A stretch of 62,610 nucleotides of DNA, the filler included, from Globobulimina sp. (lineage: Eukaryota), in NCBI GenBank assembly GCA_003354225.1. It is 27 parts of 27 records of this genome, joined end to end, with 100 filler letters (N's around TTAATTAATTAA, not from the genome) between each part and the next. Parts side by side here need not be neighbours in the genome. Positions count along the whole stretch, not along the records: positions 48,782 to 51,003 come from PIVH01008092.1; 26 more parts are not named here. One strand, 5' to 3'. Shown here piece after piece: positions 2,428 to 51,003 of this stretch. A program made the position numbers and the translations under genes. Numbering within the stretch: position 1 is the stretch's first letter; each line of letters starts with the position of its first letter. The notes beneath the pieces are model-generated. The model had not been told where the DNA came from, ran no database searches, and saw only the letters and a list, made by a program, of their open reading frames with translations.

Positions 2428-3305
2428 AATCAATATCAATATCAATATCAATTTACTTCGCCAAATGATATACCATGGGTAGTCAGCACAAATACATATA
2501 AAATACATATCCGGCACATCCGGGAAGTGTTGCAGTGCAATAGTAAAACTACAAAAAAGTGCTAAAAGGCAATTAATTACTAAAAATACTTAGACTAGAA
2601 CTTATTGTCATAATAACTCTTTAACAATAATTTGAACTTTGCATATGACACTGGATTTAATACATCAATGTTAAGTTTTTCACATGCTTCGTTTAATAAA
2701 ACAGCACCACGGTAGCAAAATGCACGTTTGGCTGCATCAGTTTTGAAAGATGGAATATTGAATTTTGGTACCAGATTTGTTCTTGTTGTATGGCGGTTTG
2801 TACTGATATGAAAGTTTCCAATAGCATTTCTTTCTAGGAATAATTTGTAAGCCATTAATTGAGTTCTGAATTTGAGATGAGTCTGGGCATCAAGCCATTT
2901 TAGTTCGTTCCGTGCGGCTGTCGCTCTATCATACTTTCTTAGACCACAGACCATCTTCGCACCAAAGTTGACAATTCTTGTGATGGTTTGATCGACGTAG
3001 GAAGGTGGAGAGGCTTGAATTACGGATGGCGCATAATACACTTTTGACAGCACGGTAGATTCAATAGTTCGAATTAGTGTCTTTCTTGGAATAAATTTCT
3101 TAACTCGGTTTATAGCATACAATTCTCTTTTGCAGCGGCCGGTTACAGAGTTCAAATAGGGTAGAAAGTTCAAGTTTTGATCGAAAATAATTCCCAGATT
3201 TTTTGCCTCAGGAACAGTGTCCAAGGCTTGATCTAATAACAACAAATTTGGTTGGTTGTCTTCCACTAAAAGTCGACGGTTTTGAGCTGTTCCAATTGTA
3301 ATAAC
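2428..3305 (-). mobile_element. 5'-truncated non-LTR retrotransposon (CR1/L2-like): end of the ORF2 RT region, 3'UTR and (ATTGAT)n tail
   Basis: Frame open 3305-2595: VITIGT...AKNLGIIFDQNLNF...IESTVLSKVYYA...ELKWL...KRAFCYRGAVLLN, typical of the CR1/L2 ORF2 C-terminus. A hexamer tandem tail lies at 2428-2453, about 140 nt after the stop. Confidence 0.85.
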
Positions 3306-3395
3306 TCACGTTCTGAAAATTGAATTGAGGTTCCCAAGAAATCATCCATTCTTCTCTGATTTGGAGCAAGGTAAAAAACTGTCACAGTTCAAAGA

Positions 3396-4316
3396 ATGTC
3401 TTCCAAAAATGCCCAAAATGAAGAATTAACTGTGTATGGGTATGTGCGAAATAATTGTTGCACTCCAATACCAATTGAATTGATAGATTTAATGGTGTTA
3501 TTTTATGATTTATACTGTCATTGGTATTTGAATAAGAAAGCACTGCAACAAATCATCGAAACAAAAACTGCGTTTACGAATGGGCCAGTATTTGAGACTG
3601 AAGGTATTTTGTTTGAACATATGATCGAAATCCGCGTAGACGATAAGCATTATTATGGTGTCAAGGTAGCAAAAATGCCACAAGATATTGAATATTGTGG
3701 TATGTATTTAGAACTGCGATGTGATCAAATTGGTTCTTTCGATAAATGTTTCAGAAGATATCAGCCCGACAATGCAGACTGTTGGACATATTTAAACCTA
3801 CCAAATCTGGAACCATTTGATCATTTATATTTGAGCTGTTTTATCGATTTAAAACATATTAAATTCAAACAAAGTGCCAATAAACATAGCTTTGAAAAAT
3901 TAGAAAAATTTCCAAGATGTGCTCAATATAAATGGAGCATTGATGGTGGATTAATGGAAAGGTTTAAAATCCACACAGATATCAGCTCAAATTCCTTTGG
4001 CAATGATAAATTTTCAATTAATTTATTTTTATGGCCAGGTCATGAATTACAAATTACTCCGCAACCCTTAGTGATGCCATTGGATATTGTTAAAATGGAT
4101 ATTTCTGTGGTTATTCGGAATGACTTTAATCATAAACAAATAGAACATACTTGCGAGTATTTGCAGGATGAAGCGGAATGTTTTGATTCAGGAATATATT
4201 TAGAAGATATTTTCAAGGAAACTGCAATAGTTTTTGATGTTGAATTGGAATTAATTGGAATGTATAAGAAAAATGAGCCCATTAAAAACTATCTCACTCA
4301 TTTTATTGAAAAATGA
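3396..4316 (+). CDS. Hypothetical protein: N-terminal VYGYVR...IPIELIDLMVLFY module plus two MATH/TRAF-like beta-sandwich repeats
   Basis: Intact 306-aa ORF. Two repeats begin CHWYLN and YKWSID and continue with GPVF...GILF and SSNSF...FSINLFLWPG, resembling MATH domains (inference). Confidence 0.7.
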   Translation: MSSKNAQNEELTVYGYVRNNCCTPIPIELIDLMVLFYDLYCHWYLNKKALQQIIETKTAFTNGPVFETEGILFEHMIEIRVDDKHYYGVKVAKMPQDIEYCGMYLELRCDQIGSFDKCFRRYQPDNADCWTYLNLPNLEPFDHLYLSCFIDLKHIKFKQSANKHSFEKLEKFPRCAQYKWSIDGGLMERFKIHTDISSNSFGNDKFSINLFLWPGHELQITPQPLVMPLDIVKMDISVVIRNDFNHKQIEHTCEYLQDEAECFDSGIYLEDIFKETAIVFDVELELIGMYKKNEPIKNYLTHFIEK

Positions 4317-4648
4317 TTAGTTCAACCATAAAATTCGCCTATTGTGTTATTTGCGAATGCTTGAATAGAAGTTCTGTTACAGAATTAATTAATATCAATC
4401 TGAGAATTGAGTGTAGTAACTACTCTTCTAATCATGGCGGAAATTGAAGGTTGCATTATCACCTTAGATAATTATATAGTTTATTATCATCAACCTAATA
4501 AGTTTCCAGATGGACTTATGATATCAACGGGCGATGTTGAATTATTAANNNNNNNNNNNNNNNNNNNNNNNNNNNNNNNNNNNNNNNNNNNNTTAATTAA
4601 TTAANNNNNNNNNNNNNNNNNNNNNNNNNNNNNNNNNNNNNNNNNNNN

Positions 4649-11617: not shown

Positions 11618-12839
11618 TTTTCTTTGCGTAATTTGCCTATCAATACCTTCAATTCATTGTTATTTAATATCTTATTCACTTTCACATTGTTCGTAATCAA
11701 TTTACAGCGCGAACCAAACCGCAAAGATATTATGGTTTCGTCCCTATTGAACATATGTTTGGATGCATTGACAACCAATGTCGTCTTACAATTGCCGCCC
11801 AATGAATCTCTCAATACATGCGTCAGTTTGCTGTCTCTGAAGGGGACATGCTTCCTATTCTCAGCCAATGAGGAGATTACTTGACCTAAAACGGTCAATG
11901 ATAAGTTTATTTTTTGTGCTTCTTTCAAGCGATTTCCTGTAGCATTGGTTTTGCGTACTTTCTCACTGCCGGCAAGATCCACCATATTCAACTTGCCAAC
12001 CCGTATGCTGCCGTCATGTATCTTTATTGCCACCGTCAACACCATCAACATGTGACTGCGGGACGACGAGCGATTCATTGATGTTTCTGCTTTGGTACGA
12101 TACTTATTCGCACAGCCAATCAATTTGAGTACGTCTATTAATGTCATTACATGCGTTTCTGTCACATTCGTGATCTGGGTTTCGTGGTTTTTGTTTAATC
12201 GGATCTTTAATTGTTTTTTGGAGGAAGGATTGAGCAGATCTCGCAATTTTTCCTTGTAGATTTCAATAAATGATACGTTGACACGTGCTTCGATGATGTC
12301 GGGGGCATCTTCTATTTCGCTGAATATGTAGGATACTGAACGGGGGATAATACCCATTAACCGGGGGTCTCCGACACTGTCCTCGGGACCAAACATTGTA
12401 TAAGTTTTGCCTATGTAGTATATATTGTATGTCACTCTGATATTATATGAAATATATGCATGTTTTATACCAGATCCTGTCTGTCCTATATATTTATTAC
12501 ACAATGTATTGTATATATATTATGTTTTGCACAAGATATAGGCGTACCATATGCGAATATGCAGCCATTATAACCGGCTAAAACATCATTACAAACATGT
12601 TCTGCGACATGATTAAATGTGGATGACTGTGATAAGTTGTCATCGAGAATACGGTCAAATGTAAATCGGAGTGGCTCACTTGCTTTGATTGCACATATTT
12701 CGATTGCACCAATTTTTTTATCGTCATTATTTTGAAATATTATTGGTTTATCTTGGATTTTTAATTTTTTGGCCTCTTTTTTTTCACGTTTGTTTGTTGG
12801 GCGAAAACGAATTATGACATGGATAGTTTCTTGCGTCAT
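11618..12839 (-). CDS. Kinesin motor domain (kinesin-1-like), 3' incomplete; exons 12839-12548, 12485-12471, 12410-11618
   Basis: IFAYGQTGSGKT after splicing, NRSSSRSH switch I, DLAGSE switch II, HVPFRDSKLT. Confidence 0.95.
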
Positions 12840-12926
12840 GATGCTAACTGTGAATATACAGTTTTTGTTTTCAGTAGAAACACTTAGGCCGTATCCTTAT
12901 TTGTTGATGCTTGTTGATGTGGTGGA

Positions 12927-16263: not shown

Positions 16264-18486
16264 AGCCTTATTATTCAAGCGTTTGCAGCCCATTTTGCAC
16301 AATAAATCGCGATTTAACAACTGCTTCTTATCCACAAAGCGATTCTTTTCATCCTTGCATTTCCAGACTTGGCCAAGGGCAGCTTTCCACAGATCCGAAC
16401 GTATCAAATCATTGGCAAAGATCTGCTGCGCCAATGTACGCACCGCGTCACATCGAAATTGTTTCTGATAAAACAACGTCTGCAGCCGACTGAAATTTAC
16501 ACCTAATTTCTCATTGCGGATATTGGGCCGCATCAAGTTTGCCATCTTACAGATCGTCTCGACACTGGCTTGTCGCAATATATCCACCTGCCAATCATGC
16601 AATTTCTTCACCGGCTCTGCTGCTTTCTTCTCCTCCTTCTCCTCACCAGTCTTCATCTCCTCTTCTTTCTTATCCTCAGCCTCATCCTCCTCATCCTCCT
16701 CCTCTTCGGCAACCAATTTCAACGCAATTTTCTCAGCCTGCGTCAAATCGTCAAATAGCTCGCGCCAATTCCCATAAATGATATAACTCAACGCGCCCAG
16801 CAACGTAGTCCCATCGTCCACCGGTCCAAACTCGTTGCCGTCCATCGAATAACCGTCGCTGTCATAGGCCAATGTGTTGCTGATACTGTCATACGCCCGG
16901 TTTCTCGTCCTCCGACGTCGCATAAAGGGGCTGGTATAAATATCCTCCTCTTCCTCCTCATTGCCTACACCCAACACCTCCCAGAAATTCTCATCATCCA
17001 CGTTCACATTGGCGTCGTCCGCATGCGCCACAAACACTGCCTCACTGAACATGGCTGCGTCCGGATCGTTGGTCAACGCGTCGTGTTTGACGGTCTCTGT
17101 CCGCGTGTTTAATATGTCATCGATACTGGCATTGGCAAACTTTTTTATATCATCGTCGGTCTGCACGTCCTTTAAAAACATGCAAATGGCGCCTTTCCGT
17201 AACATATCATTGATATCGCTCTTACCCATATCCTTCATATCGCCCATAACCACCTTATTCAATGCTAATTTCTGATCGGCGCGTTTAAACATACTCTCTT
17301 CGTAGCAATTACGCGTAATCAGTCGATAGACCTTCACCTGCTTCTTTTGCCCAATACGATGGCAACGCGCAATGGCTTGGACATCATTCATCGGATTCCA
17401 GTCACTGTCGTATATAATCACCGTATCCGCGGCCATCAAATTGATCCCTACGCCGCCGGCTCGCGTAGTTAACAAAAATACAAAGATGCTGTCATCGCGC
17501 TGATAGCGGTCAATTGCTTCCTGCCGCTCAATGCCAGTCACACTGCCATCCAATCGCTCATATAAATGCTGCCGATAATTGAGATAATCCTCCAAAATAT
17601 CCAACAAATGCGACATTTGACTGAAGATCAAGACCCGATGGCCTTCGCGTTTCAATTTCGGCAATAATTTGTCCAACAACACCAATTTCCCGCTCGATTT
17701 GATCAAATTCTCGTTCATAGTCACCAGGTCCGTGCCGGGCGGCGACATAGTTTTCTCCACATCCGTCATTAAAAAGGGATGGTTGCAACATTTACGCAGT
17801 TGCATGGCCACGTTCATCAGCGACGCCTTGGCGGCGCCGCACGCCTTCAACTTCTCATACGACCGTTGGTACAGTGCCTTGTACCATTTCTTCTGAAATA
17901 GGGTCAGTTCCACCCATATGATCTTCTCCTCGCGTTGACCCAAGCTTTTCTCCACCAAATACTTCAACCGCTGCAACAATCGCACGTCCAGCAACGCTTT
18001 CAGCTCATTCTTGCTCTCCGCCAAATTGCTAAATCTCTGCACAAACCCGGCCTGATCCTCGAAATTCGCCGGGTCCATAAAATGCAGCAAACACCACAGC
18101 TCGTCCATGTTGTTCTGGATCGGCGTACCCGTCAACAACACAGTGTGCGTATAGGCGTTCTTAAAGGTCCTCAACGTGCGGTAGAACAACGAATGGTCGT
18201 TTTTCAACGAATGGGCCTCGTCCACGACGATGGTATTCCATAATATCTGCGACGAGTTCAATAATTTCACGTCCTGGTTGACAATCTGCGGCGTGGTGAC
18301 CATGACATGGAACTTGAAGTTGTTCACGTTCAATTTGCGCAAATCTTTGCCATTTTTCGCGCGGGGATGGCGAGTGTCGGTCCACAGCCAATCGAATTCT
18401 TCGTGGACGATGCGTTCGCGCGCCGAGGCGTTGCCGTGGTACACAATCACATTCATATCGGACCAGGCCCGGAATTCGCGCTGCCA
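16264..18486 (-). CDS. CHD6-9/Kismet-type SNF2 chromatin remodeller, internal fragment
   Basis: VDEAH, LLTGTPIQNN, MQLRKCCNHPFL, LLTTRAGGVGINL, DSDWNP..D.QA.ARCHRIGQ. The post-helicase KF...IDDIL..RT...FSEAVF...VDDENFW segment is characteristic of subfamily III CHDs. Confidence 0.92.
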
Positions 18487-18586: not shown

Positions 18587-20116
18587 AAGTGTGTTTTTCA
18601 TATTCTGAAAAATTGAGGGCCTGTTAAGTCCTTCACCATACAGGAACTTGAGAACATTATTCCGGTTCAAATCATAAATAGCGGCAAAACGGCTCAAGGT
18701 CTCTATCTTGTCCCAGTCATACTCACCTTCGGCATTGTTGGAAACAATTTCAGTGGAGATTTCTCCGGAGTCGTCGATATCATCCTGTACCGTAACCTGT
18801 GTTCTGGCAAGATTATAAGACAGCATCTGGTCAAATCGTATACCTGCCGTAAATTTCAGATTAGACAGCAGCCGATAATCAACCTGGGTAAACAGCGCCC
18901 TTGTTCGGACATCACCCCTAACATGTTCAAATCCGTTCTCAAGGCCCGGATCACCAAAAGAGGGAAGGTCATATAAGCTGTGGGCATCCAATACAGTCCT
19001 GATATTGATTCCGGATGTTATCTTCAGGTCTTCATACGGTGTGACAAACGCATCAATCTCTCCTTCAAATGCATTTGAATCTATCTGTTGAGTTCCAAAA
19101 AAATCGTTTGATAGCAAATTAAATTTATAATAATCATTGTTTCTGAAATATCCCAGTTTAGTATTAAAAGAGAATAAACTGGAACATATTTTTTGATAAT
19201 TACCTGATATATTTATGGATGTATAGCGACCAAGAGTCCCTTCACCCCCGGACGGTGCTGGAAAAAATGAATAACTCTCTTTCTCATTTTCATTATATGT
19301 CACATTCAATGTCAGATTCTGGAAAAGGCCTGAAAAATTCATGTACTTTTGATTTTCTTCCAGAGTATTTTTTGTTCGATCATCAAGAGCAGCTCCCCAG
19401 CCATCAGGAAATTCATCATTCCGGAGTTCGGAATAGGATACATCGATTCCTTTTGAATCATAAATCGCTGCATCAATACTGTATTTTATCCGGTCATTTT
19501 GTGAAAATCCGGATGTACTGATAACCGTATTATATGTCCCTTCACTATCTATTGATCCGGATATTTGGCTTTGCGGGGCCTCTTCCGGCTTTTCACTGGT
19601 GATAATATTGATGACGCCATAAAATGCCCCGCTTCCGTATATGACAGACATAGGCCCCCGAATAACTTCAATTCTTTCAATGGTCTCCACAGGAACAGCA
19701 ATTTTTGTCAACGGATAGCTGGAATAAAGATCAGCAATCTGATTAACCCCCTTTACCAGGATGATTAAATTCCTGTTTGCCACACCCGTCCAGAAACCCC
19801 TTACACCGAACTTGGCACTATCCTCTCCATAATCGTCAATCAAGAACAGGCCGGGAATATTTTCCAAAATATCCTGCAGCCTTGTATATCCATAGGATTC
19901 AATTTCTCTACGGGAAATTACGACAACACTCGCAGGTATGTCCCTTACTTTTTCGAGCTGCTTGCCGGCAGTAACGACTTTCATGGTCATCAACTGCTCG
20001 ATAGACATATTGAATACATCTTCAGGTTTTAAATCATTTGCGGAAGATGGCATGCCATGGATAATAAAAAAGAAAAAAAATACGGCCAATGAAATGTTCA
20101 TTAAGTATTTCATCAT
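18587..20116 (-). CDS. Bacterial TonB-dependent outer-membrane receptor, 3' incomplete
   Basis: Signal peptide; MSIEQLMTMKVVTAGK...PASVVVISR...ILENIPG; plug motif IERIEVIRGPMSVIYGSGAFYGVINIIT; beta-barrel strands; no introns. Confidence 0.93.
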
Positions 20117-20440
20117 GGACCCCCGGGAATCATGATAGATTCCTTAAGTAGTTTTCAATATTTCAGGTTCTGGTAAATCAAACAGGTAGCTGGGTGACGC
20201 TTGTTGGCATCCGGTTGACGGCTTGGGCCAAATTGATCGAATATTATTTAACGTTTGTTCGAAAACAGATATTGCAGGAAATAGCCTTTTGGGGCCAGAC
20301 ACAATTTAATAGTATAAATTGAAGTGGAGATTAGCGTCTATTCGAATCAACTATTTTAGTAAAATGGATAAATATCCGGGAAATAATGAATTCGTTTTAA
20401 TTTAACCAATATATAAACGAAATGGTATGATATGTCAATT

Positions 20441-30933: not shown

Positions 30934-31013
30934 TGTTAAAGCAATTTAGTTTGAATTAAGGTTTTCAACTTCTGGAAAACATTAACCGTTAAATATATCA
31001 AAGAAAGAGCATC

Positions 31014-32411
31014 ATGTCGCTGGCCTCAGAGATAGATCGACAATGTTTAACGTTTGGATACATCCGGCAATGTACAAAACAATCCAACATTACTTTGCCA
31101 TGTGCCCTACCAACAGAACTGTATCAATTAATATACACTTTTTATGGCAAATCATATATTATTTACGGTGTTGGTAGAAACCAGTGTGGCGAATTTGGTC
31201 TCGGTAATTGCCTCAAAGCAAGAAAGTATGAGCAATTGCCACAATTTTCATTATTATGTGAGTCTCCACAATGTATATACCCACAATTCAAAAAATTCTA
31301 CATTCAAACTGAAGCAAATAAAATATACTATGCTGGCCTTGATACCATTGGCAATGAGTTTATTTCTCAATTTAAGCAATTAAAATTGTTCAAAAAGCAA
31401 ACAAATGCACACAAAAACAAGATATTATTGATAAGTGATGGATTGCAGGCAAATCACACATTTTTTGTGATACAAAACACTGAAAACCGGGAAAATAATA
31501 TGTTTGTGTTTGGTAATAACTATTCAGGACAGTTTGGCATTGGTCATAGAACCAGAAAATATGAGAATATATACATTCATAATTGCACACAATTTATGAA
31601 TACGGTTATTTTCGGATCAATTATTAATATAAAACAAATAAAATGTGGTTCAAATCATTCATTGATTCTGACACGAAATGGATTTCTTTATGGCTTTGGA
31701 AATAATACATTCAGTCAATGTGGATATGAATCGATTGATAATGACAATATTTATTATCCCAAACTAATTCAAATAGAAAATAATATTATAATTACGGATA
31801 TTTGTTGCGGATCCAATCATAATTTGTGCCTTTCCAGCGATTATAAATTATTTGTGTTTGGGAGCAATGAATATGGACAAATTGGACCTAAATGGAATGA
31901 GAATGATTGTGATTCAAATACAATGTTATTGCCGTCAAGAAATCAAATAATTGGAGTAAAACAACACAAATATTTCCAAGATATTAAAATCAAACAAATT
32001 GAATGTGGCTCAGATTATTCGTTGATAGTTGATTTCGATGGACATTGCTGGTTATTTGGGGATAATAGATGTGGACAAATTGGCTGTGGAGGGGATAGGA
32101 TTGATATTGGTGATGGTGTGGATGAACCGTTTTTAATTCAATCCCATGGATGTTTGAAAGATATAAAAATCAAATATGCTTCGTCTGGATATACGCATTC
32201 GGTGCTAATGTCAACAAAGGAGCCACAACAAAATATTTATGTGTTTGGATGTAATTTGCATTGTGAATGTTCTGCTGTGATGAAAAAAAGACGATTTATT
32301 TATAGTCCCTATTTGTTGACGAAAAAGGAAATATTTGGCAATAAGGTGCAATATAAAATAACTCATGTTATCGCAGCAAGGTGTTCGACTTTGATAATTT
32401 GTGAAAAGTAA
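31014..32411 (+). CDS. RCC1/BLIP-II repeat protein with an N-terminal TFGYIR...LPTELYQLIYTFY module
   Basis: Multiple I..I.CG..H.L.L....L+.FG.N..GQ.G repeats in an intact 465-aa ORF. Confidence 0.92.
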   Translation: MSLASEIDRQCLTFGYIRQCTKQSNITLPCALPTELYQLIYTFYGKSYIIYGVGRNQCGEFGLGNCLKARKYEQLPQFSLLCESPQCIYPQFKKFYIQTEANKIYYAGLDTIGNEFISQFKQLKLFKKQTNAHKNKILLISDGLQANHTFFVIQNTENRENNMFVFGNNYSGQFGIGHRTRKYENIYIHNCTQFMNTVIFGSIINIKQIKCGSNHSLILTRNGFLYGFGNNTFSQCGYESIDNDNIYYPKLIQIENNIIITDICCGSNHNLCLSSDYKLFVFGSNEYGQIGPKWNENDCDSNTMLLPSRNQIIGVKQHKYFQDIKIKQIECGSDYSLIVDFDGHCWLFGDNRCGQIGCGGDRIDIGDGVDEPFLIQSHGCLKDIKIKYASSGYTHSVLMSTKEPQQNIYVFGCNLHCECSAVMKKRRFIYSPYLLTKKEIFGNKVQYKITHVIAARCSTLIICEK

Positions 32412-41715: not shown

Positions 41716-41848
41716 NNNNNNNNNNNNNNNNNNNNNNNNNNNNNNNNNNNNNNNNNNNNTTAATTAATTAANNNNNNNNNNNNNNNNNNNNNNNNNNNNN
41801 NNNNNNNNNNNNNNNCTACATATACAGTATTGCACTAATTAAAAACAG

Positions 41849-44037
41849 AAATTTATAACGAACGCTTGCGTGATTTACTAAACCCCAAACAAACGCCTTG
41901 CATTCGCGAGGTCCTAATCCACAAAAAATACGTTCCAATCATGCAAAACGTGACCACTGAGCACGTCAACAATTTGGAAGAGTGCATGGCTGCCATCCGC
42001 ATAGCCACCGCCAACCGAACCACTGCGAGAACCAATCTCAACGCCACCTCTTCGCGCTCGCATATGGTGATGAGATTGATCGTGACCATACAGACTAAGG
42101 ATGGTATGAAAAAAACGGGTATTGGGAACTGGGCAGATTTAGCTGGCAGCGAAAAGGTGAAAAAAACCGGTGTCAAAGGTATGCAGTTAAAAGAAGCAGG
42201 CAATATTTTAAAATCATTGTCGGCGTTAAGTAATGTGATTGATGCGTTGGAGAAAGGTCGCAAACATGTTCCCTTTAAGGATTCTAAACTCACGTTTATG
42301 CTGAAAAATAGTTTGGGTGGCAATTGCATGACCACTTTGTTGCTGTGCGCCTCTCCGAGTATGCAGAACAGAGAGGAAACGATCAGAAGTATACAGTTTG
42401 GTATGCGGTGCAGGAATGTGCAGAATGTGGTGTGTATCAATGAGGTTCGCAGCAAACAACAACTGATCGCAGAGAACGAGAAACTGAAACTGGAGATATC
42501 TGCATTGAAATGCAATGTGATCGCAGCGGAGGGCATTGTGAATGAGAAGTTGCATGAGTTTGAAATGGAGAATTTTGATTTGCTGGAACAGAGTGAAAAA
42601 AGCGAACGTAATATCGAGGTGTTACTGCAACAGATACAACAAATGAGTGTGGAGAGAGACGAGCGGAGGGAGAGAGAGAATGAATTGAACAATGAGTTGG
42701 AAGTAAATTTGAATGAATTGCATGAATATCAACGGCAGATTAAAGATTATAAAATAAATGTCGATGACTTAGGAAAGGAGAATGAGGGCATACAGCACGA
42801 AAATAAGGAGTTGGATCTGAAAAATCAAGAGTTGAATGTGGTTGTTACCGCATTGAATGAGGAGAGAAATGGATTGAGGTTAAAATATGAAAAGTTGCAG
42901 AATGAAAACAGTGAGTCTGAGAAACGAATTGTTTCATTGAAATCTGATTTGAAACAAATGGAGACTTTAAAACAAGAATTGGTTGATTTGAATTTGAAGC
43001 AGCAACATTTTGAAAAAGAAGAGTTGAGTTTGAAGCAGGAACAGTTGGTTGATATCGATGTAGGTTTAACAGTGACAAAAGATGTTGAAGAAATTAATGA
43101 GATTTTAAATGAATTAAATGATGAGAAAAATAAAAGTGAATTGAAAGAACAAGAATATAATAAATTGTTGTTCCAATTTGAAAATATAATGATTCAACTC
43201 AAAAACGAAAAAAATAAAAATGAAAATTTGGAAGTCAGTATGAATAGATTTGAGATGCAAACTGAGACATTAACCAAAGAAAAATATGAAATTAAAGATA
43301 AACATCGAGTGTTATATGCGGAATATAATGAGTTAGAAGAGAAATTTAATACATTCCAACAAAATATTAACATAGAAACGGATAAATACACTCAAAATAT
43401 CACGCAATTAAAATATCGAATGCACCAACAAAGCCAAGATAATGTTGCCTTATTATCCAAGTTAAAAAGTATTGAAAAATCTCAAGTAGAGCACGAAAAT
43501 GCATTTGCAAACAAATTGGAAGAGTTAGAAGTTGAAAGCGAAGAATTGAATGCAGAAATTAAAAAACTGCAACAAATAAATCAAGATCTCGAACTTGATA
43601 AAGATTCATTGGAAGATGAAGTAATTGAAGAAAAACAAGAAGAAGAAGAAGAAGATAATAATAATCCAATTAATAGTTACAACACCGAGGAATTTGAAGA
43701 GAAATATAAAGAGGAAAAGGAAAGTGATTGGCATTTTGGACATGCCCGCACCCGAAGCAGTGCCTGCATTCGTATCCCAACGGGGTTTAATGTATCAAAT
43801 ATATCAAATATAGCAATAAACATTACAACGCCTAACAAGAATGACACGTTATATGATGATGATGGTGATGCGGCAGCATTGGATAAATTAGAAGCGGAAT
43901 TAACATCAAATATATCTGGCTTAGCTACCTATCGACGCAAAAAACGCAAAAAATATAAAAAGCGTAATTTGCCAAAATCAATGACAATATTAGAGACTGA
44001 GGAGTTGGACAAGTTCAATAAATTATTATCACCGCGG
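41849..44037 (+). CDS. Kinesin: second half of the motor plus a long coiled-coil stalk; both ends incomplete
   Basis: EIYNERLRDLL after an acag acceptor, NATSSRSH, DLAGSE, HVPFKDSKLT. Confidence 0.93.
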
Positions 44038-48681: not shown

Positions 48682-49093
48682 NNNNNNNNNNNNNNNNNNN
48701 NNNNNNNNNNNNNNNNNNNNNNNNNTTAATTAATTAANNNNNNNNNNNNNNNNNNNNNNNNNNNNNNNNNNNNNNNNNNNNATTTGTGATCATGAGTATA
48801 ACTAAAAGTGCAACATCCATTTTAATTAGAAGAATTTATATTAGTATAAAAGGGTTACTAATAAATTCTTATTAGCTTTTATTTAACACAACCAAAAGAA
48901 GTCAAAGGAATAAAAAACACACTATCGGATTCATCATAAACTTCACAAGTATTTCTACCTTTACAGTTCATTAAACTATTCTTTAAATTATTAATCCAAT
49001 TCAAAACTTTTCTCAAATTAGTAGCATCAACATTTTCCTTTTCTTCTATCATTTTAATAGAATCAAGTTTTTTATGTAAATTAGCAACAAACA

Positions 49094-50314
49094 ATGCTTC
49101 ATCATTCGCTCAGAAAGGCACATAAATCTGCACGCGCTCTTAACCTGACCTTACAACAATCAATCGAACAAACTCCATTCCACCCATCATCCATTGGATT
49201 GCCATCGGATTTTTTATTAACATCGATTGCCAGTTTGAAAGGATGATCCTCTAAAATCCCTCAGAATGAATTAATAGCATTGCTGGAGGGAGTCGTAGGT
49301 CCATCGCAAGAGGACTCAATGTTGGACTGTTCAATCATAAAATGTGCAAATAATTTGAATCTCATATCATCCACAGACTATTTCTACCCTTTGGTGGCTG
49401 ACCCATATGTTCAAGGACGCATTGGTGCCACCAATGTAATCTCCGATATTTACAGTTTGGGCATTCCAAATATTGACAATATATTAATGATTCTTGCCGC
49501 ATCCACAGACATTAAAAATAAACAGCACCGCAACATAATAACATCGGAAATGATTTCTGGTTTCATAGATTCGTGCTTTTTAGCCAAGACTCGAGTGACT
49601 GGCGGCCATTCCGTCAACAATCCATGGCCAATAATTGGTGGCTGCGCGCAAACAGTGGTGACTGACGAACAGTTTATATCGCCATTTAATGGGCAATGCG
49701 GTGATTATTTGGTGCTGACAAAGCCTTTGGGCACACAGCTCACTGTAAATATGGATGAATGGAAGTCATTAAATGATGAGAAATATAAACAAGTAATCTC
49801 GGAAAATGTTATTGATGATGGTATAATTGATAAGATTGCAAATATTGGCAAAGGGAGTATGATGAAATTAAATCGCAATGCGGCCGTTTTAATGATTAGT
49901 GATAAATACAAGCAATATGTAAACGGTGCAACTGATGTGACTGGATTTGGCATACTCGGACATGCCCAGAACTTAGCAGTTCATCAGTATGGTAATAGAG
50001 GCAATGATGGCGACGGCCTGCAATTAGTTATTGACAGGTTACCAGTTATAAAATATAGCAATATTATTGATAAGTTTTTTGATGGAATGTTCAATTTAGA
50101 GAAAGGTTTTGCTGCTGAAACAAGTGGAGGTTTGTTGGTGATGATAAGTGACAAATATGCGGCAAATGATTTTATTGAAGAATTGTGGGAATTGGATGGT
50201 TGGCCCTCATGGATCATTGGAAAGGTTCGGAAGTATGACTGCAATGACACAATTACGATGAGTGAGGCGGCCATTATTGATGATAATTTTGAGTTTATTG
50301 AAGTTTATGGATAA
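49094..50314 (+). CDS. SEPHS2: Selenophosphate synthetase 2 (SelD/SPS2), a selenoprotein with TGA=Sec at 49244-49246 (residue 51 of 406 from ATG 49094)
   Basis: PFHPSSIGLPSDFLLTSIASLKG-U-SSKIPQNELIALL lies in frame upstream of ORF 49280. Family motifs STDYFYP, DPYVQGRI...NVISDIY, GGHS..NPW.IIGG, LVLTKPLGT, ATDVTGFGILGH and ETSGGLL follow. Confidence 0.95.
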
Positions 50315-50384
50315 GATAATGAATAATGAATATTAAATGGACTGTTTGCTAGTTGCTACTCTGTGGTTTTTATATTGATAACAA

Positions 50385-50455
50385 TATGCATTAAACGGAA
50401 GGTGATAGCAAATATGTGATATATGTTTGCTTGATATTGAATTAAATAATGCATA
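50385..50455 (+). promoter_or_regulatory. Candidate eukaryotic SECIS element in the SPS2 3'UTR (non-canonical)
   Basis: Helix I tatgcatta (50385-93) / taatgcata (50447-55); internal loop; core GTGAT (50402-06) / TGAT (50432-35); 11-bp helix II agcaaatatgt / atatgtttgct with two G.U pairs; apical loop gat. Confidence 0.75.
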
Positions 50456-50563
50456 GTTTTACTATATTAATTATTTACAGATAGTGTGTAAACAATTGAT
50501 TGAACAATCCGCCTCTTTGACATTAAGCAATATCTTATCTTTCAGTAACTTGACCGTAAAGCA

Positions 50564-51003
50564 ATGGCTCAGGCACAAGCGGTTGAAACAAATGGACAAA
50601 TAGAGGGTGGTGTGGATGCAGAAGATTTCCCAAACGAAGACGAACAAGATTCAGCATTAGTTGCATGGATAAATGAATATAAATTTCATAAAATGGTACG
50701 ATTTCTTACTATCTCAAACAGAAAATGATTTGAAAGAAATCGCCAAAGAACTAAAAATTAGCGTTATGCAACAAAAGAAAATGTTGTAAGCAGTTCAAAG
50801 AAAAAACAAAAATGGAACAAGAACAAAAACAAAACCAGAAATCTGTCCATTGCGACCAATCTGAAAAAAAAAATCTGACAACATTGCACATCCAAAGAAT
50901 AAGTGGGTAGAATCATTTGATACATTTGATTCACAACGAAAAGGACACAAAGTGCATCTCACAGACAATGCAAAAACAGCTTATGTGAAGAAAGATTTTA
51001 TTT
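50564..51003 (+). pseudogene. Disrupted gene with a SAM-domain-like segment
   Basis: MAQAQ...LVAWINEYKFHKM, a frameshift, then FLLSQTENDLKEIAKELKISVMQQKKML*AVQ. Confidence 0.4.

Follow-up and report, generated by a model that had tools for sequence, protein, structure and literature searches.

The window, that is, the whole 62,610-base stretch of DNA analysed here, is not a single locus: it consists of 27 size-sorted contigs of 2221–2224 bases each, joined by 100-base N/TTAATTAATTAA linkers (2225–2324, 4549–4648, and so on). Most of these contigs are AT-rich eukaryotic sequence. Pfam annotation was run on 128 of the 205 ORFs of at least 90 codons, namely those with no more than two TGA codons (TGA read as U), leaving out the 77 ORFs with three or more; the eukaryotic genes found in this way encode three kinesin motors, RCC1 repeats, SNF2, Snf7, ATG22, GH10 and papain. 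One contig carries a bacterial TonB-dependent receptor among the eukaryotic ones, and the assembly is therefore mixed. No selenoprotein gene other than SPS2 was recognisable by Pfam among the 128 window ORFs scanned. SPS2 lies, together with a hairpin downstream of its stop codon, on the 2.2-kb contig at 48782–51003 (Table 1).

Table 1 Features of the SPS2 contig, with the parts of the downstream hairpin, and other genes located in the window.
Feature	Position	Strand	Details
Kinesins	11620–12896 and 41839–44037		Pfam
SNF2	16264–18486		Pfam
TonB-dependent receptor, bacterial	18587–20143		Pfam; one contig
RCC1	30993–32408		Pfam
SPS2 (selenophosphate synthetase, SPS2/SelD) CDS	49094–50314	+	406 codons, single in-frame TGA; AIRS and AIRS_C (Pfam)
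Sec codon TGA	49244–49246	+	Codon 51, motif K-G-U-S-S-K-I-P-Q; position matches control SPS2 TGA
SPS2 stop TAA	50312–50314	+	
3′ UTR spacer	50315–50384	+	70 nt, stop to hairpin
Helix I, 5′ strand UAUGCAUUA	50385–50393	+	9 perfect pairs with 50447–50455
5′ internal loop AACGGAAG	50394–50401	+	8 nt
5′ core GUGAU	50402–50406	+	Unpaired G (50402) + UGAU (50403–50406); fits R + UGAN
Helix II, 5′ strand	50407–50417	+	11 contiguous pairs with 50421–50431, two of them G.U
Apical loop GAU	50418–50420	+	3 nt; adjoins (AU)3 tract
Helix II, 3′ strand	50421–50431	+	
3′ core UGAU	50432–50435	+	Fits KGAW
3′ internal loop AUUGAAUUAAA	50436–50446	+	11 nt
Helix I, 3′ strand UAAUGCAUA	50447–50455	+	

Homologues of the SPS2 protein were abundant (5243 at E ≤ 0.001). 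The nine best of them (P0001–P0009) are 66–73% identical to it and include sequences from the foraminifera Bolivina argentea and Nonionella stella, the others being ENA/Logan calls. The next named relatives, from trypanosomatids and oomycetes, reach 41–45%; because of this gap, and judging by protein identity, the SPS2 contig most likely comes from a foraminifer or an organism closely related to one. The gene calls of all nine close relatives start directly past the Sec position, from which we infer that the TGA is also kept in these foraminiferal-level genes.

As a control set, we collected eukaryotic SPS2 loci in a metagenome scan and kept 80 of 337 confirmed loci, with 39–52% identity to the window SPS2 and none at the foraminiferal level. 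All 80 have a TGA at the same position as the window gene, within the motif G-U-[G/A]-C-K. The active-site motif of the window SPS2 (49241–49258) reads G-U-S-S-K, with Ser in place of the Cys found two residues after Sec in 80/80 controls. Elsewhere in the window, long ORFs of 707–741 codons contain no TGA, which is therefore not a general sense codon. Two related contigs differ from the window in the SPS2 coding sequence chiefly at synonymous sites (4 of 5 substitutions in contig X2, 14 of 22 in contig X6), and this mainly synonymous change extends to the part of the coding sequence upstream of the TGA. On this evidence the comparison of contigs indicates that SPS2 is a functional gene under purifying selection; a gene with a Sec UGA under such selection must in turn have a SECIS.

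The hairpin at 50385–50455 starts 70 nt past the stop codon of this Sec-containing SPS2, a position reported by the first-pass annotation and read again here directly from the sequence. The architecture claimed for it, comprising helix I, internal loops, a GUGAU/UGAU core, an 11-bp helix II and a small apical loop, was borne out both by inspection of the sequence and by ViennaRNA, which for 50375–50465 returned the same two helices as minimum free energy (MFE) structure and as centroid (−18.3 kcal/mol, z = −2.37, with 2 of 200 shuffles as stable). Folding energies were −17.5 kcal/mol for the element alone and −9.4 kcal/mol for its upper stem-loop, as against −10.1 kcal/mol for the opposite strand; the two G.U pairs of helix II are possible on the plus strand only. 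The hairpin has neither AA nor CC at 10–13 nt after NUGA, offsets 10–16 reading U-G-U-G-A-U-A, and it has no form-2 mini-helix, in agreement with what had been stated of it before. Its apex (50414–50424) is an (AU)n microsatellite, (AU)3 in the window and (AU)6 in contig X2, and the core pentamer GUGAU is repeated at the apex (50416–50420).

We then considered how often such a structure would arise by chance. Both strands of all 27 contigs were scanned for kink-turn hairpins of the form [A/G]UGA...GA, with the apical loop ignored. At a helix II of at least 9 bp and a helix I of at least 7 bp, the 62.6-kb window contained one match, the hairpin described above. Forty dinucleotide shuffles gave a mean of 0.1 matches per window at the same 9/7-bp setting and 0.025 at 11/9 bp, the level of the hairpin itself, and the chance expectation for the 249-nt UTR (from the stop codon to the next same-strand ORF at 50564) is approximately 2e−4. 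Between 49000 and 50990 no other credible SECIS candidate was found; a canonical AA-containing SECIS elsewhere in the UTR was what the first-pass annotation had named as an observation that would speak against its proposal. Three sites were considered and rejected: a UUGA at 50437 (8 bp with one mismatch), which overlaps the hairpin, has no AA and would need a helix I passing 50489, where the match to contig X2 ends; an AUGA at 50673, which scored 11.1 bits (E = 6.1) with our covariance model R3 (see below) and forms no helix II; and the AUGA repeats at 50319/50326 directly past the stop codon, likewise without helix II. The small same-strand ORF at 50564–50761, which starts 250 nt past the SPS2 stop, is seemingly split by a short GT...AG intron near 50697–50722, and further downstream of it contig X6 shows indels of 1, 2 and 6 nt.

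Published descriptions give the SECIS quartet consensus as UGAN/KGAW, preceded on the 5′ side by an unpaired purine (A or G) and accompanied by an apical run of A, name UGA/GA as the sole invariable part, and place helix II at 11–16 bp in SECISaln (PMC2647825, PMC3753652). The hairpin agrees with most of this. It has a 3′ position, in what would be the transcribed UTR, behind a gene whose in-frame UGA falls on a known Sec site; UGAU at 50403–50406 faces UGAU at 50432–50435, predicted to form tandem sheared, non-Watson–Crick G.A pairs; G50402 is the unpaired purine 5′ of UGA; helix II, with 11 bp, lies within the ranges of both SECISaln (11–16) and SECISearch3 (stem2, 7–15). Helix I has 9 bp and is separated from the core by loops of 8 and 11 nt, the 11-nt 3′ loop being at or just above the SECISearch1 limit, and the energies (−17.5/−9.4 kcal/mol) are below the SECISearch thresholds of −12.6 and −3.7 kcal/mol. 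It departs from the consensus in three respects: no unpaired AA(R) or CC stands 10–13 nt above the quartet; the apical loop has 3 nt as against 8–30, a length test that the 9-nt loop of contig X2 would pass, taken by itself; and covariance scores are low (RF00031 unreported, R3 5.5 bits).

Set against known systems, the hairpin thus resembles the eukaryotic type I SECIS as defined by SECISearch/SECISearch3, SECISaln and RF00031 in its 3′ UTR position, helix I, internal loop, UGAN/KGAW quartet, purine, helix II and energy, and differs from it in having no AA(R) or CC, a 3-nt loop, and an upper part shorter than the 15–39 nt required from AA to GA. Non-AA apices have precedents: vertebrate SelM carries a CC-type element. 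A GGGA-type SECIS element is known from Toxoplasma. In the SelO SECIS, CCC takes the place of AA (PMC2919729). These vertebrate CC-type elements are akin to the hairpin as functional SECIS elements with a non-AA apex; unlike it, they have a defined CC or CCC in a loop of normal size, where the hairpin has G-A at positions 12–13 above its core, within a 3-nt loop. As for the core, the first-pass annotation had called GUGA non-canonical, a claim that did not stand: among the SECIS elements of green algae and sponges the GUGA_AA type predominates according to the published survey (PMC3473315), and five control SPS2 elements (L009, L013, L033, L057 and L059) have the same core. The GUGA_AA elements described from Chlamydomonas, Ostreococcus and sponges share with the hairpin the G before UGA, whereas they keep the apical AA, those of Ostreococcus with long mini-stems, and the hairpin has neither (PMC3473315, PMC2375036).

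The control SPS2 loci provide a direct view of how consistently the apical motif occurs. A scan of the 3′ regions of the 80 loci, blind to AA, yielded 26 distinct top hairpins, 21 of which have AA or CC at 10–13 nt. Four of the five without the motif are large-loop matches (loops of 40–61 nt): for L039, L062 and L064 either the contig itself or a sister contig holds another, AA-bearing candidate, while for L021 (43-nt loop) no other candidate was found. In the fifth, L074, AA stands at offset 15–16. All credible control SPS2 SECIS elements carry AA or CC, and in a MAFFT alignment of 19 of them the A of column 19 is invariant and that of column 18 is present in at least 90%. The closest architectural counterpart of the hairpin is the compact element of metagenome contig L057 (1708–1781, also delimited as 1726–1763), with a GUGAU...UGAU core, a 9-bp helix I, 9-nt internal loops, an 11-bp helix II and a tiny 7-nt apex; it is nearly identical in layout, and differs in that its apex, AAAAUUG, does contain the AA motif and that its SPS2 shares no more than 44% identity with that of the window. 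Two otherwise canonical control elements (L063:1218–1263 and L080:1180–1221) have U rather than A or G before the quartet (UUGA_AA). L069, with 28% GC and one intron, is the closest SPS2 relative for which DNA was available (52% identity in its best segment); a regular SECIS is absent from its 3′ UTR (3259–3400). That region offers two overlapping irregular candidates, one with a 5′ half of AUGAU + 11 nt + AAA and the other a GUGAU...UGAU hairpin in which an AA bulge comes early, and they compete for one and the same 3′ UGAU.

Searches with covariance models did not recover the hairpin. Rfam reported no match to any SECIS family over 49000–51000, in the 249-nt UTR alone (E ≤ 10), or in the whole window at the gathering threshold. 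The RF00031 score of the hairpin should lie below roughly 10 bits, because the UTR-only search already listed rows of ~10 bits; the gathering score of this family is 35 bits and the Infernal threshold of SECISearch3 is 10. Rfam is weak on protist SPS2 elements: of 20 control loci, two gave a SECIS_1 match and none did so at the gathering score. Our own model R3, for which the upper parts of 15 control elements were used, returned 25 plus-strand 3′ UTR matches and one minus-strand match on the 80 control loci at E ≤ 1; L057 was not detected at that threshold, and compact elements are therefore under-detected by it. Run blind on the window with filters off (E ≤ 10), R3 gave 16 noise-level matches (≤13.7 bits) that did not include the hairpin, which none of our models R1 to R3 found blind. 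When R3 was forced onto 50395–50445, it aligned the hairpin in the correct register (50402–50435) with 5.5 bits, compared with 16–41 bits for controls.

Pattern-based tools would fare no better. The SECISearch pattern is described as NTGA, 10–13 nt, AA or CC, 15–39 nt and GA, with energies of at most −12.6 kcal/mol for the whole element and −3.7 kcal/mol for its upper stem-loop (PMC2375036); SECISearch1 uses 'RTGAN p2=11...13 AA 5...16' and internal loops of 3–13 nt on the 5′ side and 3–10 nt on the 3′ side, and the SECISearch3 filter accepts apical loops of 8–30 nt (those under 8 are discarded) and a stem2 of 7–15 (PMC3753652, supplementary file 2). The expectation of the first-pass annotation that standard searches could miss the hairpin was thus upheld, with RF00031 silent at both loose and gathering settings, the published SECISearch pattern calling for AA, and the SECISearch3 filter code rejecting loops below 8 nt. 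By the behaviour of these models, a genome-wide search with a consensus model would overlook it.

Related contigs from other runs allowed a comparison of the hairpin with its surroundings. Contig X2 (2907 bases, from a different study) spans 49078–50489 at 99% identity, with 10 substitutions over 1.4 kb and 8 inserted letters. Within the 71-nt hairpin there are none of the 8 listed substitutions, and the sole change is ATATAT inserted behind 50418; the 70-nt spacer before it differs by 3 substitutions and a single insertion of 2 nt, a contrast (0/71 versus 3/70 substitutions) that is not statistically significant. Both helices and the core are unchanged relative to the window, and at 99% identity no compensatory changes are possible to see. 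The insertion turns (AU)3 into (AU)6 and enlarges the loop from 3 to 9 nt (worked out by hand from the reported insertion); no AA arises. Since the length of the (AU)n tract differs between the two contigs, the apex seems to be under little sequence constraint. Such a length polymorphism fits a mechanism independent of AAR, and equally a weakened element. Similarity between X2 and the window ends past 50489, leaving a common 3′ flank of 175 nt (50315–50489) with the hairpin inside. As a comparison of two sequences, X2 lends the hairpin modest support. Run X1 is identical to the window over the hairpin and is probably the source of the window, so it is not independent. Contig X6, a relative at 90–95% identity, covers coding pieces and 50700–51003, with the UTR outside its coverage. 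An exact 40-nt piece of the hairpin had no locus in a collection of genome contigs.

Two further observations concern the contig as a whole. Contigs of other runs cease to match it upstream of 49063 (X1) and downstream of 50489 (X2), which suggests that the surroundings of SPS2 vary structurally, belong to paralogues or include chimeric joins. An A-rich stretch at 50797–50834 is matched by short contigs of all four runs compared, including X7, which otherwise has nothing in common with the contig; by its looks the stretch is of low complexity or a repeat of the dispersed kind.

Taken together, we regard the hairpin, with a probability of roughly 70%, as the functional SECIS that the SPS2 mRNA carries in a foraminifer-like protist. 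We do so because the SPS2 TGA occupies the Sec position of all control genes in a gene apparently under purifying selection; because the hairpin is the sole 9/7-bp kink-turn hairpin of the window and so rarely expected by chance in a UTR of this length, on a contig that holds no other credible candidate; because its core, purine, helices and energies fit the published consensus and thresholds; because it is intact in X2, which has only 175 nt of 3′ flank in common with the window; and because it folds better on the plus than on the minus strand and aligns to R3 in the correct register. Counting against this reading are the missing AA/CC, the R3 score, the silence of Rfam, and the mammalian literature, in which the AAR motif is called essential for Sec incorporation (PMC2919729, PMC2792357). 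The apical variant without AA or CC is not described in the literature searched, in which we found no published SECIS or selenoprotein analysis of foraminifera (including Reticulomyxa), the literature on Rhizaria being algal surveys.

Other eukaryotes suggest how the hairpin would work: tandem G.A/A.G pairs between GUGAU and UGAU, with U.U pairs flanking them, would form a kink-turn bound by SBP2, and the SBP2 complex would bring eEFSec and Sec-tRNA[Ser]Sec to the ribosome, where the UGA at 49244–49246, ~1.15 kb upstream of the hairpin, would be read as selenocysteine. Transcription of the hairpin, its binding of SBP2 and its recoding activity are presumed here on the same grounds. In such a scheme, the machinery of this lineage would either do without a contact to an apical AAR or find a replacement for it in the G-A at that place.

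One alternative is that the hairpin is fortuitous or unrelated and that a canonical SECIS lies off this 2.2-kb contig, for instance in a 3′ UTR that is longer or spliced and runs beyond 51003. In favour of such a location are the absent AA/CC and the low model scores; the contig is also short, the assembly fragmented, and the sequences of X1 and X2 at odds with the window before 49063 and after 50489. Yet only ~2e−4 such hairpins are expected by chance in the UTR, a same-strand ORF already begins at 50564, no alternative candidate is present inside the contig, and the flank common with X2 is restricted to 50315–50489, so that a SECIS common to both should be located there; we therefore consider a distant element unlikely. 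A second alternative is a decaying or weak SECIS, whose apical adenines were lost by (AU)n slippage, in a gene that functions badly, works by low-level readthrough, or is on course to be lost or to turn into a Cys form. The apex being an (AU)n microsatellite of different length in two contigs points in this direction, as does the published finding that AAR mutations abolish activity in mammals. At the same time, change in the coding sequence is mainly synonymous, including upstream of the TGA, both contigs are without AA, hence there is no private lesion, and the gene calls of P0001–P0009 start past the Sec position, as would be expected if the TGA were kept in them; a decaying element thus appears quite unlikely.

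A kink-turn RNA of another kind is very improbable, be it a snoRNA resembling the box C/D type or a site bound by a protein of the L7Ae/L30 family that regulates the mRNA without Sec insertion. The hairpin does share with box C/D snoRNAs a tandem G.A kink-turn built from UGAU-like boxes, here the pair GUGAU...UGAU, and the best Rfam rows are C/D snoRNAs (snoR22 with 24.3 bits and E = 2.3; snoR118 and GlsR14 with ~10 bits). These rows, with E values of 2.3–9.3 and thus all above 1, are not significant and are far below the respective gathering scores (50, 44 and 90 bits). The boxes read GUGAUAG/UUGA rather than RUGAUGA/CUGA, the perfect 11-bp, 25-nt hairpin that they enclose leaves no room for a guide region, and spacing and the 3′ UTR location differ as well, with helix I offset by loops of 8 and 11 nt in the geometry of a SECIS.

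Were the hairpin non-functional, what remains would be an ordinary Sec-containing SPS2 whose SECIS would still have to be located. If it is the SECIS of this gene, the GUGA core is already known and the apical variant is the new part. Whether the variant is of wider occurrence is a more tentative matter: it is possible, though we would not presume it, that a minimal SECIS class without AAR or CC operates in foraminifera or across a broader retarian lineage, with the AAR-dependent step bypassed or taken over by another contact; pattern- and model-based surveys would in that case systematically under-call the selenoproteomes of foraminifera. In the published work seen here, AAR (or CC) is treated as required in every eukaryotic SECIS and its function is stated to be unknown; the motif is hard-wired in the SECISearch patterns and rewarded in SECISearch3 grading. 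A working SECIS without the motif, if confirmed, would offer a natural AAR-less system for asking what AAR does. Foraminifera are important benthic protists and often tolerant of anoxia; given such a SECIS, surveys of their selenoproteins would need a relaxed descriptor, and the truncated foraminiferal SPS2 genes in public protein sets would be explained.
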